Source of the DNA: Hormiphora californensis
Taxonomy: Eukaryota > Animalia > Ctenophora
DNA length: 64,000 nucleotides
NCBI GenBank assembly: GCA_020137815.1
Contig: CM035353.1
Coordinates: 2,356,001 to 2,420,000, forward strand
Reading direction: 5' to 3'
The notes beneath the pieces were generated by a model. That model worked only from the letters and a program-made list of their open reading frames with translations. It did no database searches and was not told where the DNA came from. This document shows positions 28,171 through 56,454 of this stretch, piece by piece; the stretch's first letter is position 1, and every line of letters starts with the position of its first letter. Both the position numbers and the translations under genes were made by a program.

Positions 28171-31100
28171 ATGGAGACTTTCAAGTGCCTCCTTATTGCG
28201 TTGATCATCGCTGGTCCTATGGTAGAAGGTAAGTCAGGATTCCATGTATTACATGATGTAATGATGTATACTCATTTTATAAGATGGCGTCGTTGCCATA
28301 AGTGAGCGATCATTGCATTGTTCATACAAGGTGCAACAGCACAAAGCGATCATGGCAATAAACGTGCTTATAATTGTTCTATCTGCCTGTCGTATATCTT
28401 ATTTAAATAATATCTTATTAATAATAAGTATAAATAATTCTTAGTGAAGGCAGTAGGGGTCCGGACTTTGGAATAGCACCCTTCAGCAGTTATACTGCCG
28501 TGTAGAGATTTTTGAGCTGAAAAAGAATATATCATTCTTTTTTCTCTACGATACTGTTTTCTATTCATTATGGGCTCATAAATGAATGGGGTCTTCTCAA
28601 ATGCTGACAATTCCCTCAAGCGCGTTTTAATGCTCTCTCCCCGGCTTAGGGGTCACGTGATACGGTCGCTGAGTGCGTGTGGCTTCTAATTAGCCCCTGC
28701 TTACACACGGTTTGTCACTCGATATACATGCTGCACCCCCCTCACTTTATATCATCTCCCACATTTAAAATCAATGTGGATTCAGACTGGGACCCAAATA
28801 AGAATATGAATATGATTATACTGTTTTAGTTCCTGTTATAGGGATCTGAACAGTGCAGTAATTAATGCACATCGCAAATGGAACATTTTCAGATCTTTTT
28901 AGTACCCCTCCCACATTCTCCCCTCTATAAGTTAGATTTATCAGAACACATGCATTCATTCTTCATTTAACTACTGCAACTTGGTAGCTTCATGTAGTTA
29001 TTCTGTGCCCCGCTCGAATGAATAAAAACCAATGAAGATTAATCAGTTGTGTATTCAAGAACAAGATTCGTTACTACTAAAACAATTCCAATTAGAGAAA
29101 GATCCAGTTTCCGGATTCCGGTCAGTTAACATCTCAATCAGAGTTTGACATGCAACACCAGCTAAAAATCCAGTTTGAGGCTGAGCTCAAATGCAGAGTT
29201 CCGGAACCATACCCCAGCTTCCAAAATACCCCAGCTTCCGAACCAATCAGTCTGAATCACACGTAGTTCCAAGCTATATTAATATAGAACATGATGCAGA
29301 AGTTCTATCTATTCCATATTTGTTCACATGTCGTTCGGAGATGCACTTAATAACGAAATCGGCTGCCAGAAGATTTCGGATTTTTCGAACTATGTCACGA
29401 AGAGAGAAGTCCTTGCCCATTTCAGAGCAGTGTGTGCTGAGGATCTCGTTGGTGTAGCCAAATCAGTAAAAACGAACCAGGCAATTTCCCTTACTGCTGA
29501 TACCGTGCTCCTTGTACTTGTTAACATGGGACACACCGCTGTTTTGAAAAGATCAGTTGTTGCGTAAGTTTCGTTTTGACTATCTCTTTGCAGTTGCTAT
29601 TATGTATTGGATGGCAACTAAAAATTGTCCCTTCAAATTAGTTAAAAATTCATTTTGAAAAGCTGTGCTTCAAAAGCTAAAGGGAAGACTCCTCAACCGT
29701 TTGAAATTAGGGACAATTTTTAATGCCAACCGTTAATCGTTATATTGTATCATTGTTTATGCTGAGTTTCCTGAAAAACTGGGAAAAGAGGTGATCGGGG
29801 ACCTACATGGTGCTAGGTGGATAAACCTGGGGGCAAGAGTCATCCGTCTTTACATCACTCTTCGCCCAACAGACTCCATCTACCCAACAGTGAGACGGTT
29901 GGCAGACTTTATCGTAGGATTATATTTCAAGGTAAAACAAAAAACAATTTATATCACAGTATTACTATGAATTTCTTTGAGTATATCTTTGGGATGTATT
30001 ATTTTATCACTCTGAATTACCACCTTTTTCACACAGGTTTATTCTGATATCAAGTTGAACTGGCGCATAGAGCATGGAGCAGGCCATATCCTCAACGAGA
30101 TCATTCTGGTGCGGCAGCACCTTGCCAAGGAGGATGCTGATGTGATCACTAAGAGTATCGGCATCAACTCTTACATGGGTCATCCGACCAATGTGCTGAT
30201 TGCCATGATGGGTAAGTGCCACTTACTAAGTGGTGTCAAAATATTGATTAATCCCTCAAAAATATCACAAAATGTTTACTATTATGTTATTAGTGTACTA
30301 CCGTGTGCGGCAAAAAAAAGGCCCCCCCTAGACCACCATAGTTGCCGATGTGGTGGAGAGCTGTAACTTGGCAGGGTTGCTCCACTATGTCTATCTTGAT
30401 CCTGACAGAAAAATCAGAGCTCTAGCTCAAAATTCATTTTCATGAACGGAATGAACTTCTCCGTTCCTTCGATATGAGACCCCCTCATCATTCAGAATTT
30501 TTTGCCCGTCTTTGGCTAACGATTATCTTTGTAATGAGACCAATTTGAGCATAATCTGATTACCAGGAGAGACACAGTGGAGGGTTTTCCGACCGTCACT
30601 CCTGACATGTGATCCAGGCCCGGTCACGTGGTGAAAAGTGGGTTTGGGGTGCTGTTAACATGTCTCAATAACGGATTATTGCTCTCATATCCCTTGAATA
30701 TCCCTCCACAATGCTCTCAAGTCACTTTGTGATGCTGATTGATTGGGTTCATGTCACCAGTTCTTGTCAAAGTTCTCAAGCGGCCCGTGATACGAGATCA
30801 TTTCATCAAGGAGGGGCCATCTTGTGTCACTAATCAGCCTATCATCTCACATTACACTAGCCAAGGGATCTGGGGTATTTAAATCTTCAAATGTTCATCA
30901 AAATCATTCCCAATCGTTACTTGCAATGCATTTTACACCCGAACAGAGGAACTTCATCTGGCTCAAGAAGGAAACCAACACCCTCTACCCCACCATCGAA
31001 CAGGAGTTCTTTATCAAGTTTGGCCGCCTTCTTGAGCCAGATGAAGTTCCTCTGTTCGGGTGTAAAATGCATTGCAAGTAACGATTGGGAATGATTTTGA

Positions 31101-34100
31101 TGAACATTTGAAGATTTAAATACCCCAGATCCCTTGGCTAGTGTAATGTGAGATGATAGGCTGATTAGTGACACAAGATGGCCCCTCCTTGATGAAATGA
31201 TCTCGTATCACGGGCCGCTTGAGAACTTTGACAAGAACTGGTGACATGAACCCAATCAATCAGCATCACAAAGTGACTTGAGAGCATTGTGGAGGGATAT
31301 TCAAGGGATATGAGAGCAATAATCCGTTATTGAGACATGTTAACAGCACCCCAAACCCACTTTTCACCACGTGACCGGGCCTGGATCACATGTCAGGAGT
31401 GACGGTCGGAAAACCCTCCACTGTGTCTCTCCTGGTAATCAGATTATGCTCAAATTGGTCTCATTACAAAGATAATCGTTAGCCAAAGACGGGCAAAAAA
31501 TTCTGAATGATGAGGGGGTCTCATATCGAAGGAACGGAGAAGTTCATTCCGTTCATGAAAATGAATTTTGAGCTAGAGCTCTGATTTTTCTGTCAGGATC
31601 AAGATAGACATAGTGGAGCAACCCTGCCAAGTTACAGCTCTCCACCACATCGGCAACTATGGTGGTCTAGGGGGGGCCTTTTTTTTGCCGCACACGGTAT
31701 GTTCTAAAACTGATATACTATGCCTTCCCAGGCCAAGATGAGTTTAGTGTCAGAAAAGAAGCTGTGGATATTATTTCTGACATCAGGAAGTATCGACAAC
31801 AGGGCGTTCAACAAACCTCTGTTGAACTTTAAGGCAACAAAACTGTCTGAGCTGTGTCATATGAAGAAAGTAAGTTACTACTCTACAATGTTTAAATCAG
31901 TTTTTTGTTACCCTATTGCCCTAGTGACTAAAAAGGATATCAATTTATAGGACAGGATAGAGTTCAAAGGGAGATGGACGTTCCTTGGACACACGGGCAA
32001 GGTTCACCTAATACAGGAGCCGCCAATGGTGAGAGGCAAGGATCTCCTACAATATCTACGTTCACCATTGCGTTCAGAAGTTCCCTGCCACACTCAGGTA
32101 CTACTTTGATTTGACTTTTCATTATATTTAGTCAGTTCTAAATTCCGATTCCTCCAAATTTAATTCATTATGTTATGACTAAATTACATCCCCTATTCTT
32201 CCTCTCAGGCAGTGGAACGAAACGTGGCCCTGACTTCCCAATGTGTCAAATCTGTATCGTCAAAGAAGGGCCAAATAGGGCAAGTTCTGGCCGTAGTAAG
32301 TAACAGGAAGGCCTATCCTGGGAAAGTTAGGGTATATAAGAGGCAAAAACACATGATGGATGATTTGTAGGGTGAAGTTTTTTGAACTGGTACTAGTAGT
32401 AAGATTATAATATATGTAATGCTTGTATTATATTAGTGGATCTGATAAGAGCTGATATTCATCCATGTTGATTCTAATTTTAATTTAACTCCTATGGAGC
32501 ACTATAATATATAAATCGTTTGAAGTATTTTAATATTGTGTAAAAATCATTGATTCATTAGGAATAGGAACTAAAACAGTATAACCATATTCATATTTTT
32601 ATTCGGGTCCCATTCTGAATCCACATTGATTTTAAATGTGAGAGATATATAGTGAGGGGGTGCAGCATGTATATCGAGTGACAAACCGTGTGTAAGCAGG
32701 GGCTAATTAGAAGCCACACGCACTCAGCGACCGTATCACGTGACCCCTAAGCCGGGGAGAGAGCAGTAAAACGCGCTTGAGGGAATTGTCAGCATTTGAG
32801 AAGACCCCATTCATTTATGAGCCCATAATGAATAGAAAACAGTATCGTAGAGAAAAAAGAATGATATATTCTTTTTCAGCTCAAAAATCTCTACACGGCA
32901 GTATAACTGCTGAAGGGTGCTATTCCAAAGTCCGGACCCCTATGAAGGCAGCAGCTACTTTATATGAGTTATTCTAGTTACATATTATGATTCCCGCAGC
33001 GTGGACTCCTGTTCAGCGTGATCATATCTTCCCATTTGAGCTGGAGAGTACCCCTATTCAAATCAAAACGAACTCTGCTCATGGAAGTGGGAAACACATT
33101 TGGATGGGGGCGATATCTGTTGATAAGTATATTGGAGCGTTAGTAGTTAAGTTCTCTACTCCACGTATGAAATACTACATTTCTGGCTGTAACTCTTACA
33201 CCCACTTTCCTGATGCTGCACTGCAACCACCAGAGGAGGTGGAAAAGACTTGGACCATTCGGAAGACAAGCACCAGTGTCAGTATAGAATGTAACGGAGT
33301 GCATGTTCTATACTACCGATTCAGTGAGAGTACTAAAAGTACTTGTACGCCAAGCTGGGGAGGAGATGTAGTGAAGATAAATTTTTTAGCCCGCGGCTAT
33401 GACACCGCGTCAGTTAGCTATCGAGCAAAGCCAGGTAAATAACTATAAGTAGTTTTTTAATAACTATAAGTAGTTTCGGGTTTTTTTAGTGGCGTTTTGT
33501 CCTTCATGACACTGCATGATATGTCACAAACTCGTGTATCTGGATAATCTAGCAGGTCACCCGCCTAAAACCCATGAATTGTTATATATAAGCCGGGCCC
33601 GCTTTTTTTGGAGAAGTTTAGGGGAAAGGGATGGGGTCACCTTTGCTCTAGTCCAAATTCATTACTCATTTTAATCTATATATAGATGATAAAAAAGACA
33701 AGGTAGAAATGAGAGCAGCCGAGATAACTAATTTTATAATTCCTTCAGCGTGGAATCCTGTTCAGCGTGATCTTATCATCCCATTTGATCTGGAGAGAAA
33801 CCCCCTTCAAATCAAAACGAACTCCTCAAGTGGGGACGAGATTCGCGTGACTATGAAAACTGCGGGTGGAGAGAACATTGGATTGGTGGCGGTTCGGTTT
33901 GGCGCTCCTGCATCGATGGAATTCAAAATAACAAAATGTACTTATAATGACAATTTTGTTGTTGTCGCGACGCAACCCCTAGAGGAGGTGGACAAGGTCT
34001 GGACATTTCGAAAGACAAACACCAGTCTCAGTATAGAGTGCAACGAGGTGGATATTTGGAAATTCTCGTTTGCCAAAAAAGCTCAATGTTTATCATTGTG

Positions 34101-42500: not shown

Positions 42501-43373
42501 AGCGGTGAAATATAGGTAATATTGGACAGACTGTGGGTGTTCAGAAATTAGAGAAAATAGCTCCCCCAATAACCAATTACACTCTCTCCTACCAGACTGT
42601 TGTTGAAGTAGTGGTCAGAGAGCAATTTATCACCCATTACCTTTTTCAGACTCAAAGTCATTACAGGACGAGCAGAAAATTCCGATTGGACTACTGAAGA
42701 GCTGACGTTGAGCTTCAAGCAAACCGATTCACCAATCGAGTTATTCAGTTACACGGAAGCGGTTGTTAAGGCACATAGAACTCAACTTCCCCGTCTGATA
42801 GAAGGAGACTAGGATGAACATAGAAACTTAATAGTAATAATAACCTAACACTACTCAACACTCTGGGATCAGAAATATCATGTTACTATATCACGTGGCA
42901 GGAGACACATATCATCCACCTAACATTTGTAAACAGGAAATAATAAAACAACCACCAAGTACTTTTGGAAACAAAGTGGTCATCTGGACAGGTACAGGTA
43001 TCAGAAAGAACGGATCAGATCATTTCCAAATCACATTTCTTATTATTATATTATCAAGGAAAGGAACAAAGAATCCCAAACTAATAAAAAGGAAAAGTTA
43101 AGTTATGCTTTAATTAATAGTAATAAGAATAATAATAGGGGGGAAGAAAAAATATGGGATGGATGGGGCCACTGGATAAGCTTGCAAAAATTGCTGCCGA
43201 GGAAGGCTAACGACCAATATAAGGCTTTCGATTCGGAAGTCGAAACATAATTCATAAACCTTTCATAATAATTGATCATAATAATTATATTATAATTGAT
43301 CGAATAACCAAAATAGCACCCCTAATGTAAATCGTAATAATGAGACGCCCTCTCTATTTTAGCCAAGACAGTA

Positions 43374-43620
43374 TGTTGAGATGTGTCATCACAACAGTAA
43401 ACACGTGTTGCGGGAATACGCCACGTAGGCAGGAATACGCCGTTGTTTTGTCTGCGTAGCAGACATAACAAACCCCAGCAACCCTGGTTATAAGGGAGAC
43501 CCCGGCGAGGGGAAACTAGATTTTATATCGCCACGTATTTTACATTCTAAAACCGTATCCAACTATTTCTCTTTGTTCCCTACCAACGGTTCACCCACGT
43601 CACCCCGAACACTTTTATCA
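43374..43620 (+). repeat. 5' LTR
   Basis: TGTTGAGATG...CTTTTATCA; one mismatch to the 3' LTR seen; TATAA at ~43489. Confidence 0.95.
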
Positions 43621-43674
43621 AGTGGAGCCTGATCGTCATCGAACATCGACCCAGCTCTACCGACAACCGACATC

Positions 43675-44781
43675 ATGGGAGACGACAACCAGCTAACCAA
43701 GGTAAGTGAGACAATAGACAGTCAGCTAGGCAAGCTAAATCTGGAAGAAGATTTATCTAGGGCAGATATCTCTAGAATTATTAAATTGGATAAGTTTAAA
43801 GTAGGAGAAAGTTTCGCAACATTTTGCGATAAATTTATAATACAGGTAGCAATTGCAGGGTTGAGAACACCCGATCTCCACCTTTTGTTCCTTCAAGCGC
43901 TCGATAATGAAACGTTCGGCAACTTGAAAATAGAGGCGGAAAAGCTCTCAGACCGTGAAAAAGCGGATCCAAAATTGTTTTGCGAGAGGTTCAAAAGCAT
44001 AGTTTACGGCGATAGCGACAGTAAGATTTTCCTGCAGCAGGAAGTTTTTGATTGCAAGCAGAAAAATGCAGAAACTATTGCAGAATATGTCGCACGATTG
44101 AGAGGTAAAGCGGATATTGCGTACGACAATCGAAAAGATGCCGAAATCGCTTGCTTCTTTTCATTTAGAAAGAACCTGGCAGACAGGACATTACTCAGAA
44201 AGCTGAAAGAAGCTGCCCCTATGACTTTTGATGAGGCCGTGAAACGGGCCAAGCTTTTAGAAACGGTAGCACTAGAAGAAACAGCCAATACCGTCCCTAT
44301 TCTGAAACAAGAAACGGTAACATTTGAACCTGGTAAGGGAGAACGTGAACAGCATGAGAGAATGAGAAGAGATGAGACCCCATATCCTGAAAGAAGGAGA
44401 AGAGATTCGAGAGAGAGATCACCATACTCCGAAAGAAGGAGGAGAGATTCAAAGGACAATTCGTTCCGTGATGGACGGAATGATTCCCGCAGTAGAGAGA
44501 GAGGATCTAGAAACGGATCTGACTACAGGTCGGGTAGACCTTCGTATAGGAATCGATCTTTATCTAGAGATCGTTCTTCATCCCGAGGTTACTCGAGAAA
44601 TAGGAGTAGAGAATCTAGGGATCGTTCTTCATCTCGAGGTTACTCGGGAAATAGGAACAGAGATGCATCTCGAGAAAAATCGAGAGAATATAAGCCAAGA
44701 AATTGGAGCTCAAACAATGTAATTTGTTGGAAATGTGACAGGCGAGGTCATTACCAAAACCAATGTCCTGATTTAAACTAG
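43675..44781 (+). CDS. gag: Gag
   Basis: Q...ETIAEYVARLR major-homology-like motif, RS-rich basic tract, CCHC knuckle CWKCDRRGHYQNQC. Confidence 0.92.
   Translation: MGDDNQLTKVSETIDSQLGKLNLEEDLSRADISRIIKLDKFKVGESFATFCDKFIIQVAIAGLRTPDLHLLFLQALDNETFGNLKIEAEKLSDREKADPKLFCERFKSIVYGDSDSKIFLQQEVFDCKQKNAETIAEYVARLRGKADIAYDNRKDAEIACFFSFRKNLADRTLLRKLKEAAPMTFDEAVKRAKLLETVALEETANTVPILKQETVTFEPGKGEREQHERMRRDETPYPERRRRDSRERSPYSERRRRDSKDNSFRDGRNDSRSRERGSRNGSDYRSGRPSYRNRSLSRDRSSSRGYSRNRSRESRDRSSSRGYSGNRNRDASREKSREYKPRNWSSNNVICWKCDRRGHYQNQCPDLN
44772..44778 (+). promoter_or_regulatory. -1 ribosomal frameshift slippery site T TTA AAC
   Basis: Heptamer in gag frame directly before the gag TAG; the -1 frame is open from here into pol; downstream pairings GGTTTG/CAAACC and TTGTGC/GCACAA. 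Confidence 0.8.
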
Positions 44782-47700
44782 AGATTGATTGTGCTAACCA
44801 AGGGTTTGTTTCCAAACCTGAAAAACGGGAAATACCGAGAAAAATCACCGTAGAGGCACAACCAGTGAGAGCTCAGAAAGGGGCTGAAATACTAGTACAT
44901 GCAGCAATAGAGGGTTATCAAGTGAATGCGCTTTTGGATACAGGAGCTGCAATCAGTCTCATATCGTCCAGAATTTTGGAACAAGTTAATTGTGAGGGGA
45001 GACTTCACAGTACAAACCGCAGAATATGTGGACTATCCAAAGTAGAAATACCAGTAAGGGGAGAGATTGAATTGAGTATCTCAATCGCAGGTGCAGAAAC
45101 AATGCACACATTTGTCGTAGTAGATTCACTTTCAGACGATGTACTAGTGGGTACTGACGTTATGTCAAGCCTTAATATGCATTTATTAATGGATAAAAGG
45201 TGCATTACCACTCCCTTCGGAAAGACGAAGTTTTTTGATTTTCCGAGAAAATTGGAAAAACGGGTGAAAGTTAAACTCGCTAAATCAATAGAGATTCCTC
45301 CGAACTCTATTGTCTACCTGAAAGGAAAGGTTCATAATAATTATAAAAACGCTAATTATCGAGCGGTTATGATAGGGAATAAACAAATCCCATCTAATGT
45401 CGGAGTTTCTATTGGTAATACAATAGTACATACACACAAGGGTATTATTCCTGTCATGTGTGTAAACCCTTTCTCACAGAGTATAAAACTGTGGAAACAT
45501 AGGGTTGTCGGGCATCTAGAACCGTTAGCACAAGACACTGTTATTAGGGGAATTAGGGAATATTCCGAGGAATATGATCCTAAAATTAACCGTACAAGGT
45601 TACCCCATGCCGAACCGGAAGAGGTTACCCGAGAAAAGGGTAGATGGGATGATATTGAGCGACTGTATACAGAACTCAAGATCGGTGAAATAAATATCCC
45701 TGAAAAAGAGAAGATAGAGCTAAAATCCTTAATCAGGGAGTATTCTCATTGTTTCTCTCGTCACAAGTTTGATTTGGGGGAGGCAAGCTTCTATGAAGCT
45801 GGACTCACCCTAAAACATGACTATGTGGCCAAGTGGGTACCATCGAGGGAAATGCCTCACAAACTAAAGCCGTATATGGATAAAGAGATTGAAAACCTGG
45901 AAAAATCGGGTCAGATCGAACCATGTCAGTACAGCTTATGGAATAGTCCAGTATTTTTGGTGAAAAAACCAGGAGCCGAGGACAATAATTTCAGAATGGT
46001 ACAGGATCTTCGACAACTCAATGGGGAAACACTCCCAGATAATTTTGAGTTACCGAAGATACGAGATCTGATGGATAAAATGACAGAATGTGAAGTTCTT
46101 TCGTCATTTGATTACTCCAAAAGTTTCACGCAAATCCGCATGAACGAGGAGAGTAGACCTCTAACTGCATTCAGTTATGGCGGCAAGAGGTATCAATTTG
46201 CCAGAATGGTGATGGGCCAGACATCATCATCTAGTTCATTTGCTAGAGCCATGATGATGCTGTTCAGTAAAGTACCTTTCAACTCATTAGTCTGTTTCAT
46301 CGATGACATAATGATTGGAAGTCGAACAGTGGCTGAACACATTAAACGTCTTCGTTTTGTTTTAGCACGGTTATCTTGGGGAAACCTCAAGATTAATCCT
46401 GCGAAAACTCAACTACTGCGTAGCAGTGTTAAGTTTTTGGGCCACATTGTGTCTAAGAATGGATTGCAAATAGATCCGAAACGAATGGAAGCTATCCAGA
46501 GACTGGAAGCACCCAAGAGCACGAAACACCTAATGAAACTATTAGGATGTTTGGGCTACAACCGAAATTTTGTACCAGGTTATAGCACAATAGCAGCACC
46601 ACTGTATCAACTCCTGAAAAAGGGTACACGATTTAAGTGGACAGAAACTCACTCAAAAGCCTTCAAGAGGCTGAAAAAACTCATCTGTTCAGCACCGGCA
46701 TTGGCGGTTCCGAATACAGATGATCCGCACGAATCCTATGAACTTACTATTGACAGTAGTAATATAGGGCACGGAGCGACGCTCACACAGTTGAATAACC
46801 TGGAAAGAAGGGTTATTTCTTATTGGTCTAAGGCAGTACCTGCCCACCAGCGCAAGTTCGGTGCTAGTAGACTGGAATTTTTAGGGCTCTGTCATGCCCT
46901 GAAACATTTCCGAGTTTACCTGGCGGGAACAAAGTTTGTTGTGAAAACAGACTGCGCAGCATTATTGAATTTAAAGACCATGTTCCGAAAAGAGGACAGT
47001 TACATCCATCGAAAGATGGCGGAGCTACAACAATATAACTTCAAAATTATTCACATTGATGGCAAATCAATGGATATGCAAATGACGGATTATCTAAGCC
47101 GTCACCCAGTAAAGGAGCAATATTCCACTGGGACACAAACTGAAGCAAGTCAAGGTCTACAAGAGACAATTCGAAGGGTTATTACCCAGGAAACGGATAA
47201 AACTAACCCGGTAACTTTGAATTGTATCAAAGATAACTACCAATATGACAGAACATTGTCTGAGGTAATAGAGTGGTTAGAGAGGGATGAAAAACCCAAA
47301 ATAAGTTCCACAATGTCTGAGGAACTGAAACATTACTGGAAAACATTCGAGCTTCTCGAGTGGCAAGATGGTATTTTATACCGGAAATTTAACGATGCCA
47401 AGGATCCGAAAAAGGATAGGAATTTAATGGTGATAGCGGGTACGCTAATTGAGAGAGTATTATATACCTCTCATAACGTGAAGGGCCATACTGGGCCTGA
47501 GAACACGCTAGAAATAATGCAGAGAAAGTATTATTTCTATCACCAGCGAAAACAAGCCAAGTTATACTGTAGAGCTTGTTTGGAGTGTGCACGTGGGAAA
47601 CAACCACATGCATTTGGGAAAGCTCCAATGAAACCGATAGTTTATGGTGAATTTAACCAGTGTATATCTATCGATTATTTGGAATGGAGTAAAAAGCCCA

Positions 47701-49520
47701 ACCGTAGAGGTTATACCTGTATCCTAACTATCACCGATATGGCTACCAATTATTTGGTGGCAGTACCGATGAAAAGCACAGGTGCAGAAGAGGCCATAAA
47801 AGCTATATTACAACGCTGGATTCTAGTGTTTGGAGCACCTAAAGCATGTTTACATGACTTAGGTAGTGCTTTTATGAGCAACTTGTTTAAATCCATGCTG
47901 GAACAATTCCGAATTAAGGATAAGCATGGCGTGGCTTGGAAATGCTCAACCAATGCAAGAGCGGAGAGCTCGAACAAGCGAATGAATACAACAATTCGCA
48001 CCTGTCTGAATAAGACAGAACAAGACAATTTCGATCTACACATAGGTTCAATTGTCTTTGCACTGAATTCAATTCGCTCAGGAAGCACGGGTTATACTCC
48101 CAACTTCCTAGTCTTCGGAAGAGAAGTAAGAGCGCCATCTGATCTCTTTATACAGAGCGCGAATGCAGATCAGCGTCTGGGTAGCATTGACCAGCACGCT
48201 TGGAATTTGTATAAAACAATAAAAGCATCTACGCGGGCAGCGGTAGAAAGCAAGGCTGAAAAGGTCAAGTATATGAAAAATCATTATGATAAAGGGGTTA
48301 AGGGACCCAAATTTGAGGCAGGAGATCAATGTTTGTTAATCATTGAACCGGCCAGACATAAATGGCAGCCCAGATTCCACGGGCCGTACAAAGTGCTGGA
48401 GAAACAAACCGAGCACAACTATATAGTTCAGGTCGGGGACACTAGAAAAATAGTGAATATGTCAAAAATGAAAAAGTATACTGCAAACAGGTATACTAAG
48501 GAGAGTATCTCTCCAACACCTCCGGCTGAAAAAGCAAAAACGGCAAGCTTTAGTAACAAAAAGCGATGCAATGCAATTAGGAGTGATTCATCTTCCGAAG
48601 AAGGAATTGATATTCACCCCATGATTACTAGGAGGAAAGCTCGGACCAGAGCAGAGAAAAGGGGAGAAAAAATCCCGCCGGAGTCGTTCGGATCAGAGGT
48701 GGCTACACCACCAGAAAGATCTGAATCTGAATCGGGGGGAATACCCCGAAATGTATCTGAATCAGATAAACTCGAAGGGCAGCACTTTGTAGAACCTGAA
48801 ACTGCGATCAACGAAACGGTGAGAGAGCCACAGCGGCAAGACGTTTCAGCAGTGGAAGATTCGCGTGTGGACCCGACACAATCAGATTCAGACAGATCAG
48901 AGGTTGCTATACCCCGGGAAAGATCTGAATCAGAAAATTCGGGAGAAAGATCTCGCATTAGATCTGAATCAGAAAAATCCGGGCGAACACCCCGTGTAAG
49001 ATCTGAATCAGAAAAATCTGACGGGCAATACTGTGCAGAATCTCAAATTGCAATGAATGAAACGTTGACAGAGCCACAGCGGCAAGTCGTTTCAGCAGCA
49101 GAAGATTCATTCATGAGCGCAGTGTCAGATCAGGAGGAAGAAGGTCAGGAAATGACTGAAAATCCTGAACTAGCTAGCAACGCGGAACAGCTTGTTCCGG
49201 AAAGGGCTAGCTCGAGCAGAAATGAGGGCTCAGAAACGGGGGGAGAAGGATCTTCTAGTACAGAACTTCCTAAAAGTGTCAGCAGAGGCACAAATCCCAA
49301 GAAACCCGGTCAACCTCCATGTGCCACCATGTCACTAGGTGCCTATATGAAAAAGAGTATGAAAAAAGACCGAAAAAAGTTAGCGAATATGTTGTCGGGA
49401 AATTCGAGTACTCCTGAGAAAGGGAAGAAGCCCGAAACTGGACCTAGGTCAGCCAAGGCAGGCAGACCGCTTAGAGAGAAGGTCGAGAAACCTGATCGTT
49501 TTGGTTACAAACCAACCTAA
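44778..49520 (+). CDS. pol: Pol (protease, RT, RNase H, integrase, long low-complexity tail)
   Basis: LLDTGA; WNSPVFLV, RMVQDLRQLN, FIDD; TIDSS..LEF..TDC; H..GH..C..C zinc finger, DDE core, GPY motif. Confidence 0.95.
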   Translation, partial: LEIDCANQGFVSKPEKREIPRKITVEAQPVRAQKGAEILVHAAIEGYQVNALLDTGAAISLISSRILEQVNCEGRLHSTNRRICGLSKVEIPVRGEIELSISIAGAETMHTFVVVDSLSDDVLVGTDVMSSLNMHLLMDKRCITTPFGKTKFFDFPRKLEKRVKVKLAKSIEIPPNSIVYLKGKVHNNYKNANYRAVMIGNKQIPSNVGVSIGNTIVHTHKGIIPVMCVNPFSQSIKLWKHRVVGHLEPLAQDTVIRGIREYSEEYDPKINRTRLPHAEPEEVTREKGRWDDIERLYTELKIGEINIPEKEKIELKSLIREYSHCFSRHKFDLGEASFYEAGLTLKHDYVAKWVPSREMPHKLKPYMDKEIENLEKSGQIEPCQYSLWNSPVFLVKKPGAEDNNFRMVQDLRQLNGETLPDNFELPKIRDLMDKMTECEVLSSFDYSKSFTQIRMNEESRPLTAFSYGGKRYQFARMVMGQTSSSSSFARAMMMLFSKVPFNSLVCFIDDIMIGSRTVAEHIKRLRFVLARLSWGNLKINPAKTQLLRSSVKFLGHIVSKNGLQIDPKRMEAIQRLEAPKSTKHLMKLLGCLGYNRNFVPGYSTIAAPLYQLLKKGTRFKWTETHSKAFKRLKKLICSAPALAVPNTDDPHESYELTIDSSNIGHGATLTQLNNLERRVISYWSKAVPAHQRKFGASRLEFLGLCHALKHFRVYLAGTKFVVKTDCAALLNLKTMFRKEDSYIHRKMAELQQYNFKIIHIDGKSMDMQMTDYLSRHPVKEQYSTGTQTEASQGLQETIRRVITQETDKTNPVTLNCIKDNYQYDRTLSEVIEWLERDEKPKISSTMSEELKHYWKTFELLEWQDGILYRKFNDAKDPKKDRNLMVIAGTLIERVLYTSHNVKGHTGPENTLEIMQRKYYFYHQRKQAKLYCRACLECARGKQPHAFGKAPMKPIVYGEFNQCISIDYLEWSKKPNRRGYTCILTITDMATNYLVAVPMKSTGAEEAIKAILQRWILVFGAPKACLHDLGSAFMSNLFKSMLEQFRIKDKHGVAWKCSTNARAESSNKRMNTTIRTCLNKTEQDNFDLHIGSIVFALNSIRSGSTGYTPNFLVFGREVRAPSDLFIQSANADQRLGSIDQHAWNLYKTIKASTRAAVESKAEKVKYMKNHYDKGVKGPKFEAGDQCLLIIEPARHKWQPRFHGPYKVLEKQTEHNYIVQVGDTRKIVNMSKMKKYTANRYTKESISPTPPAEKAKTASFSNKKRCNAIRSDSSSEEGIDIHPMITRRKARTRAEKRGEKIPPESFGSEVATPPERSESESGGIPRNVSESDKLEGQHFVEPETAINETVREPQRQDVSAVEDSRVDPTQSDSDRSEVAIPRERSESENSGERSRIRSESEKSGRTPRVRSESEKSDGQYCAESQIAMNETLTEPQRQVVSAAEDSFMSAVSDQEEEGQEMTENPELASNAEQLVPERASSSRNEGSETGGEGSSSTELPKSVSRGTNPKKPGQPPCATMSLGAYMKKSMKKDRKKLANMLSGNSSTPEKGKKPETGPRSAKAGRPLREKVEKPDRFGYKPT

Positions 49521-49713
49521 CAGTTGAAGACACTGTGTGAATCTCAAACAACGAGATGTAAAGGTGCCGAATAGTTACCTGGTTGGAGATCAGAAGGCGA
49601 AGTGCACGTCGCTGTGATTTAAGTATCATTGATCACCAAGTTTGACAGGTCAAAAAACCGGCATAGCGGTAGTTCTCGTTCCTTCTAACCGAAATTTCTT
49701 GCTAGCCCAGGCA

Positions 49714-51369
49714 ATGTTTAAAGCACTTGGTACGGTAATGTTATTCATGGTATGGTTCCCGGGGGTCCTGACTAAGGCTTCTGAGGAAACATTTGGAGAT
49801 AGTGGATTGGTGATGATTAGTGAGGGGAGTGTTGCAGTTACTAACAGCTTAATCTCCAGCTCTGTTATCATCAAGTTTCCTTCTTGGTATGGAATGACTG
49901 AGAAGATAAGAGAGGATTTAGGCTGTCAGGATTGGGTGGAAAAGTGCAGCAAGAACAGGGATTTAGTGGAAGAGTTTGCCAAGGTAACGGATAGGTTACA
50001 CAGAGAAGAGGAGGAATTTGGTGAGGTTATGAGAATGGTCCTGGGGGAAATAATCACTCAAAACAATGGAGGCGGAAAGAAGAAAAGATTCCTGGAGTTT
50101 CTAGGAGCCAGTGCGATTGCTTTGGGTTTAGCGGGATTGAATTTCGGGCATACCAGGGAAGTTGAAAAACATGTGAAAGAACATGGGAAGGATATTGAAG
50201 ATATCCGTAGAAACATTGAGAACCTGAAAGAAGGAGAATTTGAATTTAGAAAGGCAGTTACCTCATGGTCACAGAATGTGACCAGGAGCGTGAATAATGT
50301 CATGCATGAACTGAAATGTAGTTCAAAAATGCATCTTCTAGCAGCTGAATTGAGCAAAGGACTAGAGAAAGTAACTTCCTTGATCAGAGGAGTATTGAAA
50401 CCAGCGTTTGATGGGCCAAATTTTGGTACTCTATCACCAGATACCATCCCGCCCAAACACTTACTGGAATTGGTGAATAGCCAAGATGCATTTGGAGATA
50501 CTATCTTCAGATCCCAGCCAGGATTGCTATACTCTCTAGCACAGGTCACTGTAATTGCGGTGAGAAATCACGGACGCCAAGAAAAGTCCGCGGAATTGTT
50601 GGTAACAGTACCCCGGATAACGGGAGATACATACCCCCTCTACAGGATTGCACAAACAGGTATACATCTGGGAAACAATGTTTGTGGGTTCTGGAAAACA
50701 CCAAAATTCCTAATTGATATGCAGGGAACACTGTATGAAACTCACACAGAAACATGTGACAAAAGGGGAAAATTCCACGTGTGTCATTCAAATATGGTGG
50801 AAAACCATTCATCATGTGTACAACATGACGCGAACAATTGTACTATTATACAGGACTCCCACTGTTTAAACAATTGTGTAGTAATTTACACCCCGCAAGG
50901 GCTGACAGTTCGTGATAACACACAGAAATCCGAAATAAGATTATCTCGTTTTGATACAGGGTATATCCCGTGGAATACGGAAGATGAATTGAAAGTGTGT
51001 GGAAAAACTGTGGGAGAAAGACAACCCATTATCACTTTTGATATTCCATCTCCAAGATTTAACCCCATAACCCGGAATAGGGAATACACGAAGGAAGAGA
51101 ACCTACTTCTGCCGCTCGTGTCCAGGATATCTATAGGACACAATATGTCACTGCACGATTTTTTGCAGCCATTGGGGCGATCTCATTCACTTTTGAGACA
51201 CGATTTCTCATTCTATGTGACTGTCATAATGAGTTTTCTCACGATAGGAGCGGGAATAGCCGCCATATTACATGTCGCCCGAAAAACATTAAAATGGAGA
51301 GGGTGTCCGATGCCATGTGTGGGAGACAACACAGAGAGGGAGAATGCAACCTTAGAACCGTGTTTATAG
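49714..51369 (+). CDS. env: Envelope glycoprotein, class I F-type fusion protein
   Basis: Signal peptide MFKALGTVMLFMVWFPGVLT, basic cleavage site KKKR then fusion peptide FLEFLGASAIALGLAGL, heptad repeat, Cys-rich region, N-glycosylation sequons, C-terminal TM FYVTVIMSFLTIGAGIAAIL. Confidence 0.88.
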   Translation: MFKALGTVMLFMVWFPGVLTKASEETFGDSGLVMISEGSVAVTNSLISSSVIIKFPSWYGMTEKIREDLGCQDWVEKCSKNRDLVEEFAKVTDRLHREEEEFGEVMRMVLGEIITQNNGGGKKKRFLEFLGASAIALGLAGLNFGHTREVEKHVKEHGKDIEDIRRNIENLKEGEFEFRKAVTSWSQNVTRSVNNVMHELKCSSKMHLLAAELSKGLEKVTSLIRGVLKPAFDGPNFGTLSPDTIPPKHLLELVNSQDAFGDTIFRSQPGLLYSLAQVTVIAVRNHGRQEKSAELLVTVPRITGDTYPLYRIAQTGIHLGNNVCGFWKTPKFLIDMQGTLYETHTETCDKRGKFHVCHSNMVENHSSCVQHDANNCTIIQDSHCLNNCVVIYTPQGLTVRDNTQKSEIRLSRFDTGYIPWNTEDELKVCGKTVGERQPIITFDIPSPRFNPITRNREYTKEENLLLPLVSRISIGHNMSLHDFLQPLGRSHSLLRHDFSFYVTVIMSFLTIGAGIAAILHVARKTLKWRGCPMPCVGDNTERENATLEPCL

Positions 51370-51753
51370 ACATAATATATCAAGTATGGTGGGAAAAGAA
51401 AACGGGGGAGGTAATATTGAAGACCCCCCATCATTTCTTTGTTCCATATTTTGTGAGAAGTATCTTCTCCACTGTAGCGTTAGCAGTAATCTAATGATTT
51501 TGAAAGCTATTTCTTTCAATAAGTGTAATAACTTTGAAAGCTTGTTTCATTAAACAGTATTTATCAATAGTGCAATAACTTGAAAAGCTTGTTTGTAATA
51601 GCTTGTTTAGGGGGAGAAGCATCATCTCCTTAATAGTATTAGGGTGAAATAACCTTGGAACCGGTTGACAGGAAAATGTTTGGAAAAATCCGGATAATCA
51701 GTTATTCTCGGATAGAGAAAGAGTCCTTTTACCTAATATGTCAGTCCTCCTAG

Positions 51754-52035
51754 GCATTGGTGAAACTAAAAGTCCTGGTGGCGGTTCTCATGCTGGCACA
51801 TTTAGTGAGGCTGTACGGCTATCTGAACGAGGGAGGTGCCAAGATCAGTAAATGTCCTATAGAAGCTAAAATTGAGGAATTGTCAGAGGAGATAGAAAAA
51901 TTGCGAGAAGACGAGAGTGTGTTTAGATGGGTCATCCAGGAGGCCATCGTGGACCTATTTAGAAAGGATTCGGAGATGAGGAGGCAGTTGGAAGAGAGAG
52001 ACGATCCGAAGGAGGATGCTGTGAAGACAGATTAA
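51754..52035 (+). CDS. Accessory ORF4: hydrophobic N-terminus + coiled coil, unknown function
   Basis: Open frame inside the LTR element, preceded by CTAAT...CCTCCTAG acceptor in phase 0. Confidence 0.55.
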   Translation, partial: ALVKLKVLVAVLMLAHLVRLYGYLNEGGAKISKCPIEAKIEELSEEIEKLREDESVFRWVIQEAIVDLFRKDSEMRRQLEERDDPKEDAVKTD

Positions 52036-52289
52036 TTTTATTTGAGGGAGAAACATCCCATGCATTTGCTAAGCTATAGTTTGACAAACTTGAAAGTTGA
52101 ATGCTTGTATTATTCCGTAGTGTAACAACTAAGCAAAACAGAAAAATGTTTCCCTTTAGCAGCAGTATCAGTATAGAGTGAAATAGCTTTGGTACTCTGT
52201 TGATTATGAATTGAGTAATATCGTTTTATCAAGGGTGTAGAAATTTGTCACATAGAGCTAACAGAAACAGGTTTTCCCCCTCTAGTGTC

Positions 52290-53306
52290 ATGTCTAACAC
52301 CACAGCCGTTCCGGAGATCTCGGAAGAGGAACTCCTCCTATCCCCGCAAGAAGAAGCATCCACTAGTGAGACCATACCGATGGAAACTCCTGAGGATAGT
52401 GTCACGCCTGACACACCCATGCCAATGGAGAGCCCTGCAGGAAATACTCCAGTTATATACTTCGCGTGCATGGATTGTGGGTCTAAGAACATCAGAATGT
52501 CCACCAAACCATTTCCCGTTCCGGAGCATCAACCCGCAGACAACAATCCACCTCCAACCGCAGAAAGCACCCCACCTCAAACCAGGCCAGCACCAGAGCT
52601 GTTCCAGTCTGCCAGCAGAATCACGTTGGGAGAAATGATGGAAAATCCCCGAGTGACCCCACGAGCAAGAGGCAGGGGAAGAGGGTCAATGATTGGGCAA
52701 CACACCCTGGCGTTAGACCACCCCATGCCAACGAGACCGAGGAGAGGAAGAGGGGTGAGGACGATGCGTGAAAGAGCGCCAGCACGGAACATAGACAGTC
52801 GGGAAGCAGCAAAGGTTCACTTTTTAAGGGAACTAAGAAGAATTCCTCGGCCAAGGGGAATGCTGGGAGCTATGAAGACTGAGCTGAAGGAGGCAGTGGA
52901 GGGGGCAACACCCCTACCAATCCCCTCTCAAGAGATAGTTGCTGAAACTATCCCTGACTGGATAAGGGAAGAGGCCGAAAAAGGCTTTGCTGAGATTCTG
53001 AAGCAGGAAGAGGCCCATTGCGAAAATGCGACAGAGATAACAAATACCTGGAATAGGGTAAAAATAAGGACAGAGTTTCTCTGTCGCTCTCTGTTGTACG
53101 TCCTCAGAGATAACTCTGAGGGCGTACAGTTTACATGTGCCCGGAATAGGGTACGCGGTTCAATGGCCGATTACGTATTTTATCCAATACGAGAAGCTCA
53201 AAGGATAACGGAGACGGAGGGATACGACATGAGAGAGAAGATGGAAGAAATGAGAAGAAACTGCCGATCTCTGAGTGCGAGAATAAGTGGGTACGCGAGG
53301 ACCTAG
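52290..53306 (+). CDS. Accessory ORF5 (~338 aa): PEST/Pro-rich N-terminus, CMDC motif, RG-rich segment, helical C-terminus; unknown function
   Basis: Intact 1-kb frame between ORF4 and the 3' LTR, with a pyrimidine tract + TAG just before the ATG. Confidence 0.7.
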   Translation: MSNTTAVPEISEEELLLSPQEEASTSETIPMETPEDSVTPDTPMPMESPAGNTPVIYFACMDCGSKNIRMSTKPFPVPEHQPADNNPPPTAESTPPQTRPAPELFQSASRITLGEMMENPRVTPRARGRGRGSMIGQHTLALDHPMPTRPRRGRGVRTMRERAPARNIDSREAAKVHFLRELRRIPRPRGMLGAMKTELKEAVEGATPLPIPSQEIVAETIPDWIREEAEKGFAEILKQEEAHCENATEITNTWNRVKIRTEFLCRSLLYVLRDNSEGVQFTCARNRVRGSMADYVFYPIREAQRITETEGYDMREKMEEMRRNCRSLSARISGYART

Positions 53307-53506
53307 GCGGGAGGACGAGAAGAAGAAGACGAAAGGAAGAGGACGAGAAGAAGAAGACGAAAGGAAGAAGACGAGGAGGAGAAGATGAAGAAAGAAGACA
53401 AGTTTATTGATTTTTCTTCTAGTTCCTATAGCCTATTATTTTTCTATGGGTGGAATAGCCTATCATTTTCTATGGGTGAAATAACCTATTATTTTTTGGG
53501 GGCATA

Positions 53507-53753
53507 TGTTGAGATGTGTCATCACAACAGTAAACACGTGTTGCGGGAATACGCCACGTAGGCAGGAATACGCCGTTGTTTTGTCTGCGTAGCAGACATA
53601 ACAAACCCCAGCAACCCTGGTTATAAGGGAGACCCCGGCTAGGGGAAACTAGATTTTATATCGCCACGTATTTTACATTCTAAAACCGTATCCAACTATT
53701 TCTCTTTGTTCCCTACCAACGGTTCACCCACGTCACCCCGAACACTTTTATCA
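53507..53753 (+). repeat. 3' LTR
   Basis: Copy of 43374-43620, preceded by a short GGGGGCATA PPT-like tract. Confidence 0.95.
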
Positions 53754-55380
53754 CTGGTACCGGAAAGAGTGCCAAGAGAACTAATCTACATACCCAGGTA
53801 AGATAGCACCACCCCCCCCCCCCTCAAACTGATCATAAAATGAATCCACACATGAACTAACCCCATTGCCCCCTACAGGCTCGAATCGCATAGTGATTAC
53901 CTACGAATAACTCTGCCATCACACACTCCCGTGAGCCTTCTACAAAGCAAGGAAACCATCCAAATAGTGATCAACGGGCTAACCAAGAACAGGGTAACGT
54001 CAGATGACCCAAAAGCCAAGTGTAAGCCGCTCCTACCACCCAAAACGAATTTAAAGGTATGTACGCAGATATACGTAGAACTGCCCCCAAGGCAAAGGTA
54101 ACTGGCCTTCAACCAGCACACTGGGCCTTCCACGTGTCCAAACCCTTAACCTGATTGAACACATTAAAAGGAAGACTGATTCGATGGAGCAGTAGCCCGC
54201 ACGCGATCCCATCTACCAGTGGTGCTGTAAAGGAAGGGGCGAGGAAAAGGAAGGCTGATGCTGTGGAGATTGATAGCCCTGGTGAGAAAAAGGAGGAGGC
54301 AATGGAGACTGATCATGAAGATCAAAAGGAGAAGGAGAAGGAATACACCAACCTTCTGAGAAGAAGAAAGGCTGCAAGGAAAGATCTCCATGAGAGAAAG
54401 CAACAACAGGGGATGGAGGCAAGGAGGAGGGGCGATAGCAAGGAGGTCCGACGGAAGATGTTCGAGGATCATACACGGCAAAGAGCAGAGCTCGATGCTA
54501 ACTTCGAGAAAGAGATTGCTCCCCTAAGAAGAGTTTAGGACTCTAACAAGTTTTTATGTTTAATTATACAGTGTTTTTATATATTCCAGCTAATTTATTT
54601 CCTGCCTCAAAATAGCTACAGCGTGTTCTGAATCGAATTTACCACGGAGGTCAGAATAGGGGTAGCGCGCGAGAACATGGTGAAAAGAGAGTTGGTGTTG
54701 TCAGCGTGTGTGCTGCGCTGACACGAGGAGTGTGTAGTTGAAGGCGGGAATTGGTGACATGCCAGGAACTCCTTCAGATGACTCGAAGGTGGAGTTCTAT
54801 ACCACCGGGAGTTCCTCCAGATCCAGGACAAGGACTACGCCGCCTATGAGCTCGCTTTGCTATCCCTATGTGCTGAGCTAGGCATAACACTCCACCACTC
54901 TAAATCTGGCAGAGCAATATTTGTCAGAGGCAAGGAGAACCTGGTACCGGAAAGTGTGCCAAGAGAACTAATCTACATACCCAGGTAAGATAGCACCACC
55001 CCCCCCCCTCAAACTGATCATAAAATGAATCCACACATGAACTAACCCCATTGCCTCCCTACAGGCTCGAATCGCATAATGATTACCTACAAATAACTCT
55101 GCCATCACACACTCCCGTGAGCCTTCTACAAAGCGAGGAAACCATCCAAATAGTGATCAACGGGCTAACAGGGTAACGTCAGATGACCCAAAAGCCAAGT
55201 GTAAGCCGCTCCTACCACCCAAAACGAATAAGGTATGCACACAATTATACATAGAACTGCCCCCAAGGCAAATGTACCAAAACTTTGAATCTGTAGCCCC
55301 AAAAGACTACGCCTATATAAGGCAAAGGTAACAGGTCTCGATCCAGCAGACTGGGCCTTCCATGTGTTCAAACCTTTTCT
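53754..55380 (+). repeat. ~400-bp diverged direct duplication (53754-54145 / 54941-55375)
   Basis: Shared CTGGTACCGGAAAG.GTGCCAAGAGAACTAATC..., including a GTAAG...CTACAG intron. Confidence 0.8.
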
Positions 55381-56160
55381 GGTCGAACATATCAAAAAGA
55401 AGACGGAATCGATGGTCCTCTAGCCAGCATGTTTTTATTCACTAACCCAGCTGTTATATTTCGAGCATTAAAAAGTTAACGGAGCTGAGAATTGCTAATC
55501 CCAAATAAGTATTGCTTGTGACCTCAAAAAATTATGGCAGTGTGTGAATCGGGAACTTTATATATTCTTTATTAAACCTTAATTCTTAAACTTGCAATCT
55601 TTGTAATAAATCTTAAACTCTATAATCTCCCGTGTTTAGTACTTTGTAAAAAACAGAGTTTGTTACACCGTACAGGAAACAACTGTACCAACACCAGGGC
55701 CAGGTACTGCCGTATGGCGTTGGAATTATTCCTACACTGTTTGAGAGGCCCTGGAGAAGGCCTTCGATCACTTCTAGCTCGCCGTGACGACATATAATAT
55801 ATCTGTAACGTTCAGACACGGGGGGGGGGGGGGGGGGGTGGAGTCAGTGGATTCAATGAAGACTTTCAACTATCCAGCAGGCACATTTAGACCTTTCTGA
55901 ATGCTAAAGGGTTTGAACTAACTGCTAAGTACATTAATACGAACCTGGAAGATGCCATACAGCGAACAGGGGTGTTTTACAAAGAAAGTCGATTCTGTAG
56001 ACGGACCGGGAGACAAGTCCCCTGGACTCTTCCCGTGGAGGCGAACGGAGAGCCGTTCTGGATCAAGATGGAGAAAATGGGGAGAGATATCTCCATTGCG
56101 ATTTATTCTTATACCGAATGTAGACCGTATTACTTAATTATTGCTTCCCAGTGTAGCAGC

Positions 56161-56454
56161 ATGTCTGAACAACCCTCATCAACCAAAGAGGAGGAACTAC
56201 GAGAATTATTGAAATGTCCCGTAAGCTACTGTAATGTGCGACCCCCGGTGGACCAGTGCCCTGAAGGACATGTAATTTGTAACGGTTGCAAAGAGCAACT
56301 GATGGAAGAGGTATGCCCTGTCTGCAGGTCCCCCATGCAGGAGAAAATAAGAAACCTGTTTTTTGAAAAGGTAGCAAACACCACCCATTATTTAACGTAT
56401 AAAAATAGGTATGTTAAGTGCCCGGATAAGGACATATATATATGTAATCAATGA
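56161..56454 (+). pseudogene. SIAH/Sina-type RING copy 1 (truncated; second RING Cys changed to Ser)
   Basis: LLKCPVSY..VRPPVDQCPEGHVICNGC....CPVCR....IRNLFFEKVA. Confidence 0.75.

Follow-up and report, generated by a model that had tools for sequence, protein, structure and literature searches.

Introduction

Ctenophore "ancient errantiviruses" carrying an F-type env have already been published (Chary and Hayashi, eLife 2026, PMC13524379). Two of them, Mlei_errantivirus_1 and Bfor_errantivirus_1, both placed in clade X by RT and in clade R by IN (PMC13524379), have the gag-pol-env order, a Ty3/gypsy pol and an F-type env that bears both a cleavage site and a fusion peptide, as does the element of Hormiphora californensis described here. 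The primer site of the latter agrees with 11 of 12 bases of that of Mlei_errantivirus_1 and 10 of 12 of that of Bfor_errantivirus_1, 1-2 nt behind the LTR. The two published elements differ, however, in size from the one found here: their LTRs measure ∼575 and ∼714 nt against 247 nt, and their internal regions ∼12 kb against 9.9 kb. None of the four ctenophore rows with LTR data in PMC13524379 matches these dimensions (five rows, three of them F-type, come without such data). The same paper annotates three ORFs, whereas the present element has five; the terms "accessory", "extra ORF" and "splic" have 0 occurrences in its main text. Because their internal regions span ∼12 kb, the two published elements have room for unannotated ORFs.

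Accessory genes together with multiple splicing are treated as a mark of complex vertebrate retroviruses. These viruses (lenti-, delta- and spumaviruses) use one major donor, several acceptors and a frameshifted pol. Their accessory genes lie near or behind env (see the table in PMC2238898). Compared with them, pol of the present element is nearer to Ty3 (228 bits) than to the RT of MLV or foamy virus (at most 126 bits), its env is F-like and not retroviral, and its likely accessory genes are without homology. In Cer1 of C. elegans, the regulator CERV is made from a spliced message and is needed for the export of unspliced RNA (PMC10309623); a Cys motif and Arg are implicated (PMC10309623). 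Compared by description, CERV is large and has three structured domains (G-protein-like and M are named), whereas ORF5 of the present element comprises 338 aa, and its C-domain is predicted to have four helices. The position of the Cer1 regulator also differs from the place of ORF5 3′ of env.

Short, single-TM proteins borne by Ty3/gypsy elements, as ORF4 would be, are known from the MDG1 group (sORF2/FAST-like proteins; bioRxiv 10.1101/2025.03.14.642691). ORF4 falls within their single-TM, 60-210 aa range; as a FAST-like fusogen it was rejected, since it lacks MGxxxS/T (position 6 is Gln) and a polybasic stretch after the TM. Unlike those elements, the one described here has its own env. The bdelloid TelKA (PMC5408684) has a paramyxovirus-F-like env, as here, and env of Oikopleura Tor3a (PMC4402516) is spliced from a donor close to where gag begins, as predicted here; in the accessible parts of these two papers, TelKA/Vesta and Tor have a single third ORF, unlike ORF3-ORF5 here. 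"ORF4" and "fourth" have 0 occurrences in the accessible text of the bdelloid paper (PMC5408684). In the literature searched, no description of the two likely accessory genes was found.

An intact Ty3/gypsy element with an F-type envelope gene

The element lies at 43374..53753 of the window, which is the whole 64,000-nucleotide stretch of H. californensis DNA analyzed (contig CM035353.1); all features given below are on the + strand. It is bounded by two LTRs of 247 nt with TG...CA ends (43374..43620 and 53507..53753), which differ by one mismatch. A tRNA primer-binding site (43623..43634) lies 2 nt past the 5′ LTR, and a polypurine-tract-like site, a short G-run (53496..53506), precedes the 3′ LTR. 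The LTRs, PBS and PPT of Ty3/gypsy (Metaviridae) are thus all present, the PPT being short. The single LTR difference, the intact gag, pol and env (all open on +) and the two additional ORFs between env and the 3′ LTR (51754-52035 and 52215-53306) had been reported in the first-pass annotation, and all were borne out. Its claim of a very recent insertion held only in so far as the family is young: no target-site duplication of 4, 5 or 6 bases flanks the element, which makes dating by the LTRs unsafe. The missing duplication bears on the history of this copy, not on the family. A 9,944-nt short-read contig (run X1, possibly the source of this DNA) corresponds to 43591-53534 with zero differences; therefore, the open frames are not long-read artefacts. 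An Rfam search of the window gave 0 matches. Two further frames were rejected as genes, one of 137 codons (51081-51494) that overlaps env and has no Pfam match, and one of 139 codons (52219-52638) that overlaps ORF5.

The gag frame (43675..44781; 368 aa from its ATG) has a weak Retrotrans_gag match, an RS-repeat block and a CCHC knuckle at the C-terminus. A predicted −1 frameshift heptamer (44772..44778) abuts the gag stop on its 5′ side and is followed by a 7-bp hairpin (z −2.3). The pol frame (44772..49520; 1582 codons stop to stop) has the domain order PR-RT-RH-IN(-SH3), as placed by Pfam, followed by an acidic/Ser-rich tail of ∼330 aa with an internal repeat. Its best match among solved structures is Ty3 Gag-Pol (E 1.5e-66), and it scores 228 bits against Ty3 compared with 128 for the CaMV type and 126 for MLV, these being similarity scores and not a tree. 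Judged by such similarity, Ty3/gypsy is the nearest group for RT/IN, ahead of Retroviridae and Caulimoviridae.

The env gene (49714..51369; open frame from 49633, ATG at 49714) encodes 551 aa with a signal peptide, a polybasic cleavage site at ∼122-125 (K-K-K-R, not R-X-X-R), a fusion peptide (126-144), a TM (504-522) and 14 Cys. Pfam Fusion_gly matches residues 55-410 at E 3.9e-4, which is under the curated cut-off. No relatives were present among 7,996 candidates, and no sequence match was obtained in PDB; the single-sequence structure model (mean pLDDT 34) was unusable for fold comparison. On its predicted anatomy, env is a real paramyxovirus-F-like (F-type) envelope gene, and the F-type env Ty3/gypsy half of the element is of a kind already known (PMC13524379).

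Two likely accessory genes behind env

ORF5 (52290..53306; open frame from 52215, ATG at 52290) encodes 338 aa. When the 2,137 nt that follow env were simulated as 2000 Markov copies, a chance frame of at least 363 codons never arose. From the N-terminus, the protein has an acidic stretch (net charge −12 over the first 60 residues), a CxxC (60-63), a Pro-rich linker, an Arg/RG-rich block (∼120-190; +14 over residues 121-210, by composition) and a conserved helical domain (∼216-338). In a set of 1.84 billion representatives, ORF5 has six relatives (32-88% identity, with E between 1e-37 and 2e-6), and a profile search added one further fragment. The similarity spans ∼110 residues with conservative replacements (32-49% identity over that span). 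None of the contigs that carry the relatives exceeds 1.2 kb, and 5 of 10 relatives appear broken at one end; the aligned part is the C-terminal 40%, with the Arg-rich block outside it in every relative. No DNA loci of the relatives were found in metagenome contigs or in viral contigs (0 each). Screening 3,132 candidates close to ORF5 in length gave no relative. ORF5 has no relative in Atlas, no Pfam family and no PDB match at E < 0.06. The C-domain is modeled as four-helix (pLDDT 60.6, pTM 0.56); at E 0.001, Foldseek with this model had 0 matches in the viral and PDB libraries, and its best match in VIA, a FAT-type four-helix bundle (Z 8.8, rmsd 5.1, 114 aligned), does not stand out from common helical arrangements. 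As regards homology to Rev/Rex/CERV-type export factors, these searches yielded no more than helical bundles of a generic sort. Going by its conserved sequence, the C-terminal part of ORF5 is an unnamed protein domain without known family. A simple pattern search for a leucine-rich export signal had 0 matches.

The longest hairpin of the element (53093..53130; 17 bp, 4-nt loop) overlies the most conserved ORF5 peptide, and part of the ORF5 conservation may therefore be RNA-driven. This hairpin was matched neither in 300 Markov copies nor in 1000 synonymous shuffles.

ORF4 (51754..52035) has 93 codons from stop to stop and 81 from its first ATG. Of 2000 Markov copies made of the 916 nt around it, 79 had a chance frame of at least 93 codons, so that ORF4 needs support other than its length. 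Such support comes from codon use, which resembles that of gag/pol/env in both ORFs. ORF4 scored 0.194 bits/codon (stops excluded), the best of the parts tested and above all 754 off-frame windows; ORF5 scored 0.024 bits/codon (stops excluded), above all 460 off-frame windows and under all 230 in-frame training windows, the off-frame windows in both cases overlapping one another and being drawn from the training set. ORF4 has a hydrophobic segment at 2-20 (hydropathy peak 1.98), one Cys (34) and a heptad repeat (36-75), and fusion to the gag leader would give 102 aa; net charges of −4 and −4 were obtained within residues 31-90. If started at its own ATG, about half of the hydrophobic segment is lost. 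Its sequence suggests that ORF4 combines a membrane anchor with a coiled coil; the chance that it is membrane-anchored is put at about even, and otherwise it would be secreted or non-functional. ORF4 has no relative in Pfam or in Atlas, where the best score (0.79) is a lead at most. In organism B (run X7), one contig over 51566-51974 covers 221 of the 282 nt of ORF4 with 16 differences and no gap. Contigs of run X5, possibly a source of the same DNA, match 51601-52019 (ORF4) and 52990-53340 (ORF5) with zero differences.

Predicted splice signals

What is new is the sole perfect match to a splice donor, at gag codon 9, together with predicted acceptors and branch points immediately upstream of env, ORF4 and ORF5. 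The predicted donor (43699..43707; cut after 43701, phase 0) is the only 9/9 consensus match among the 513 GT of the element, where 0.17 are expected per Markov copy. The predicted branch point and acceptor of env (49680..49710) end with the AG at 49710, which keeps the gag-leader frame (another AG, at 49705, would break that frame). Those of ORF4 (51720..51753) are in phase 0, with the acceptor AG inside the stop codon that opens the ORF4 frame, and those of ORF5 (52255..52285) end 4 nt upstream of the ORF5 ATG. Thus, two of the three joins from the gag donor (env and ORF4) are in frame; that to ORF5 is out of frame.

When at least 10 pyrimidines in 14 and a CTRAY branch motif were demanded, 4 of 336 YAG downstream of the donor passed, three of them where env, ORF4 and ORF5 begin; with at least nine pyrimidines (plus CTRAY), four of six were well placed. 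The branch-point filter was picked after the list had been seen, which makes the resulting placement figure (∼5e-6) too good, and the CTRAY consensus may not be the host's own. By pyrimidines alone, the acceptors of env, ORF4 and ORF5 rank 20, 13 and 6 of 356. In one run guessed to be RNA, a single 36-nt piece matches the element, which speaks neither for nor against expression.

Proposed expression scheme and alternatives

The locus is best described as an intact Ty3/gypsy element with an F-like env, in which ORF4 and ORF5 are probably real accessory genes that would be expressed by alternative splicing from one gag donor. The probability of about 0.68 that we give to this reading covers the architecture (two coding genes, spliced), not the functions of ORF4 and ORF5. 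Of the complex-retrovirus-like organization noted at first pass, the two likely coding ORFs 3′ of env stand, and a splice scheme resembling that of complex retroviruses is predicted for them; likewise, of the proposed retrovirus-like lineage with its own accessory genes, the likely coding ORFs hold up, and the ctenophore kind with F-type env was already published.

According to the proposed scheme, the unspliced LTR transcript would serve as genome and gag message, with pol made via −1 frameshifting. Splicing from 43701 to 49710 would fuse the nine codons of the gag leader in frame to the hydrophobic N-terminus of Env, and splicing from 43701 to 51753 would do the same for that of ORF4. Splicing from 43701 to 52285 would create a 12-codon leader frame with its stop just beyond the ORF5 ATG, and ORF5 would be translated by leaky scanning or reinitiation. 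Because a strong donor and three acceptors would drain unspliced RNA, ORF5 may be its protector or exporter. The Arg-rich middle suggests an RNA-binding regulator, and ORF5 acting in the nucleus like Rev and CERV is a tentative proposal, the likeliest of the single functions considered and yet held at appreciably less than even odds. The hairpin at 53093..53130 would be a candidate cis element for it; the RS block of Gag could itself do the export job. ORF4 would most likely be a small membrane-anchored dimeric coiled-coil protein that works alongside Env during the assembly, release or entry of particles.

That both genes are real and ORF5 is an LTR transactivator (Tat/Tas-like) or a small-RNA silencing suppressor instead of an export factor falls only somewhat short of an even chance, each of the two roles being unlikely by itself. 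The protein runs from the acidic N-terminus (−12 up to residue 60) through CxxC and the Pro-rich linker to the basic block, which fits this, retroviral transactivators having a similar order of features. A contig of run X5 also joins 44437 to 51990 (short side 27 letters; contig ends agree), a form that has lost pol, env and ORF4 and kept the donor, the ORF5 acceptor and ORF5, which fits any trans-acting factor. Against either role, no family or fold match to these classes was obtained for ORF5, and the splice layout calls for export control specifically. It is unlikely that ORF5 is the sole gene and ORF4 a chance spacer frame, or that the conservation of ORF5 stems mostly from an RNA element or from a piece of host sequence that was captured. 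The length of ORF4, matched in Markov copies, and its lack of Pfam and Atlas relatives would agree with a chance frame, but its codon score is the highest, it starts exactly at an in-frame acceptor, it has a clean hydrophobic segment with heptads, and it is gap-free in organism B. Similarly, the hairpin over the best-kept peptide, beyond all Markov copies and synonymous shuffles, speaks for an RNA element, whereas the similarity of ORF5 over ∼110 residues extends far past these 38 nt.

Expression of env, ORF4 and ORF5 from internal promoters, with incidental splice motifs, appears very improbable, despite a precedent in env of Oikopleura Tor3b/4b (in the accessible part of PMC4402516), AT-rich spacers of 384 nt before ORF4 and 254 nt before ORF5, and the ATGs that env and ORF5 have of their own. 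It would leave unexplained a perfect gag donor and three well-placed acceptors, two of them in frame, and the start at its own ATG would cost ORF4 its intact hydrophobic segment. Finally, ORF4 might be a headless stalk-like partner that triggers or stabilizes the F-type Env, like the stalks of paramyxovirus attachment proteins. Its N-terminal hydrophobic anchor, single Cys and Ile/Leu heptad, and the leader exon that ORF4 and env would have in common, are in line with this notion. A heptad with a=Ile and d=Leu, however, favors a dimer, not a four-helix bundle, and ORF4 has no sequence likeness to paramyxovirus stalks. Headless stalks are disulfide-linked helical bundles and are enough to trigger F (as stated in the accessible part of PMC7077268), but most F-type errantiviruses have been described with three ORFs only (PMC13524379). 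The stalk reading is decidedly doubtful. The same low odds are given to the full combination, in which a ctenophore Ty3/gypsy lineage would independently have attained the complex-retrovirus grade with one donor and three messages, a Rev-like ORF5 acting on a hairpin in its own CDS, and ORF4 as such a partner of Env.

If ORF4 and ORF5 are expressed as the preferred, spliced reading predicts, a Ty3/gypsy lineage of a group among the earliest-branching animals reached the design of complex retroviruses, and the three-ORF annotation of "ancient errantiviruses" is incomplete. The predicted junctions are directly checkable in existing ctenophore RNA data.

Coverage and a possible rearrangement in organism B

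At 80% likeness, env is nearly without cover in organism B (X7) and the bins of ORF4 and ORF5 are covered; the gap itself proves nothing. A contig of the same run, which counts in favor of the spliced two-gene architecture, joins 49680 to 53494 (short side 29 letters), so that env, ORF4, ORF5 and all three acceptors are gone as one block.

Coding capacity and kinship of the element

The element (43374–53753, plus strand, LTR to LTR) contains five forward frames between its LTRs, namely gag, pol, env, ORF4 (51754–52035) and ORF5 (52290–53306); the two extra ORFs that the first-pass annotation had placed between env and the 3′ LTR were, thus, recovered. The pol domains (PR, RT, RNase H, and IN; Pfam) follow the Ty3/gypsy order, and the best solved match of pol is Ty3 Gag-Pol (E = 1.5e-66), with caulimovirus and retrovirus enzymes scoring well below. 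A canonical −1 slippery heptamer lies directly 5′ of the gag stop, with a hairpin downstream of it. Env combines a signal peptide, a polybasic site with a hydrophobic peptide behind it, and an anchor at the C-terminus, and it contains 14 cysteines; its match to Pfam Fusion_gly covers 355 residues at E = 3.9e-4, which is below the curated cut-off. Preceding its zinc knuckle, Gag carries a long RS/RD-repeat block (44330–44690), the length of which differs in organism B (sequencing run X7; two joints). The pol tail (48500–49520; ∼330 aa) is acidic, serine-rich, and gene-like in codon use, with an internal repeat of 133–152 nt.

Ty3/gypsy elements with F-type env are already known from early-branching animals, and the element is one of them. 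Chary and Hayashi (PMC13524379, in its accessible part) describe nine ctenophore env-carrying elements, six of them with F-type env, and the primer site shares 11 of 12 bases with that of Mlei_errantivirus_1 and 10 of 12 with that of Bfor_errantivirus_1. This agreement is the main ground for a ctenophore host and for the putative lineage placement. The retrovirus-like lineage with accessory genes proposed earlier is supported in part: enveloped elements with F-type env had already been published, whereas no Ty3/gypsy element with two ORFs behind such an env was found described in the freely accessible papers searched. The main text of PMC13524379 contains no occurrence of “accessory,” “extra ORF,” or “splic”; a review, as far as accessible, mentions captured ORFs “downstream of env” (PMC6431247). 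The layout not found described comprises two likely accessory genes 3′ of env and a predicted scheme of one donor and three acceptors. Splicing, selection, host, and function are what we infer; most likely, the element functions like a complex retrovirus, though it is not itself one.

Insertion site and age

The LTRs (247 nt each) differ at a single base, as had been noted before, but the very recent insertion deduced from this identity and from the open gag, pol, and env cannot be dated by LTR identity. No target-site duplication was found at the flanks (43369–43373 versus 53754–53759). The right flank opens within a repeat, and the sequence preceding the second copy of this repeat (54941–55276, 93%) is unlike the left flank of the element; the two flanks, therefore, are not halves of a single target site. 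Copies may have recombined, an adjacent stretch may have been deleted, or the pieces may have been misjoined. Consequently, the LTR pair may stem from two insertions, and its identity provides no date. Judged by sequence identity, the family is nonetheless young, because run X5 yielded long contigs with 0–1 differences to the element, and pol of organism B is ∼97% identical (47 differences in 1,648). A short-read contig of 9,944 nt from run X1, possibly the source of this DNA, showed no difference to the element interior.

X5 also contained an in-frame 3-base loss in env at 50844 and an 18-base loss at 53426, in the 3′ untranslated repeat. X1 and X5 also yielded contigs from a related LTR family that departs from 43374–43620 at many positions and carries two insertions. 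The LTR (43374–43620) has a TATA-like motif at its position 116 and contains neither AATAAA nor ATTAAA.

Predicted splicing

Only one of 513 GT dinucleotides matched the donor consensus at 9/9 positions (0.17 expected per Markov copy), and it would be cut after 43701, that is, after gag codon 9. Among the 336 YAG downstream of it, four combined a pyrimidine tract of 10/14 with a CTRAY branch motif (1.41 expected), three of them at the starts of env (49710), ORF4 (51753), and ORF5 (52285) and one inside pol. The predicted joins of env and ORF4 to the gag leader are in frame (products of 561 and 102 residues); that of ORF5 would create a 12-codon leader frame with a stop just beyond the ORF5 ATG. 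Because the acceptor filter was picked once the ranks had been seen (by pyrimidines alone, the three rank 20, 13, and 6 of 356), and because CTRAY may not match the host's own branch consensus, the scheme is counted as a good prediction, not a proof. In Tor3a elements, env is spliced from a donor near the gag start, according to the accessible part of PMC4402516.

Two contigs represent joined, deleted forms, each joint resting on fewer than 30 letters on its short side. That of X5 joins 44437 to 51990, without pol, env, ORF4, and the 3′ part of gag, and retains the donor and ORF5. That of X7 (29 letters) joins 49680 to 53494, running from pol to the 3′ LTR, and lacks env, ORF4, ORF5, and the three acceptors, as expected if these formed one module.

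ORF4 and ORF5

The length of ORF4 (93 codons stop to stop) is within chance (equal or longer frame in 79 of 2,000 Markov copies). The frame opens exactly at its predicted acceptor. No other part tested reached so high a codon score, which surpasses that of all 754 off-frame windows, a set with mutual overlap that derives from the training data. An organism B contig spans 221 of the 282 ORF4 bases gap-free. Searches of Pfam and Atlas revealed no relatives. In the product, a hydrophobic segment is accompanied by a single cysteine and by six heptads of Ile/Leu; we would guess at a membrane partner of Env, speculatively likened to a headless paramyxovirus stalk (by analogy with PMC7077268, accessible part). 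A FAST/sORF2-like protein was rejected, as two of the traits described in the accessible part of bioRxiv 10.1101/2025.03.14.642691 were lacking.

ORF5 (338 aa) is longer than expected by chance (0 of 2,000 Markov copies), and its codon use is gene-like, yet weaker than that of gag, pol, and env. Searched in full, a set of 1.84 billion representatives yielded six relatives (E up to 0.001; 32–88% identity), all aligning to residues 195–337; with cluster members and one profile match, there are ten, all unnamed and from ENA contigs of ≤1.2 kb. Five of the ten diverge at one end, resembling broken transposon copies. Replacements are conservative across ∼110 residues, which points to selection on the protein. 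The longest hairpin of the element (17 bp) overlaps the best-kept ORF5 peptide; it surpasses all 300 Markov copies and all 1,000 synonymous shuffles. Across the element, at least 10 of 103 windows fold strongly (z ≤ −3.7; 20 shuffles each); with 200 shuffles, 47470–47630 scored z = −3.95 and 52970–53230 z = −4.83.

One strong donor with three acceptors would require part of the element RNA to stay unspliced. Cer1 achieves this through CERV, itself made from a spliced message (PMC10309623, accessible part). On this need and this precedent, an export or splicing regulator is the favoured, still tentative, reading of ORF5 (roughly 35%). A pattern search found no export signal in ORF5, and the RS block of Gag is an alternative candidate for the same role. 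A transactivator and a silencing suppressor are each less likely, neither ahead of the other. The ORF5 protein begins with an acidic stretch; a CxxC, a linker rich in proline, and an arginine/RG-rich block follow. Its predicted four-helix domain gave only generic structural matches.

Other features of the window

Nested perfect inverted repeats at 28454–32942 (arms of 287 and 680 nt) represent a foldback-like element or an artefact. An ORF of 808 codons (12313–14739, minus strand) with a C-terminal GIY-YIG domain is, by its architecture, presumably Penelope-like. ORFs at 6600–8636 (minus strand) and 55891–56454 (plus strand) encode repeats of LDL-receptor class A and a RING finger of the Sina type; the RING region is found again at 59150 and 61255.
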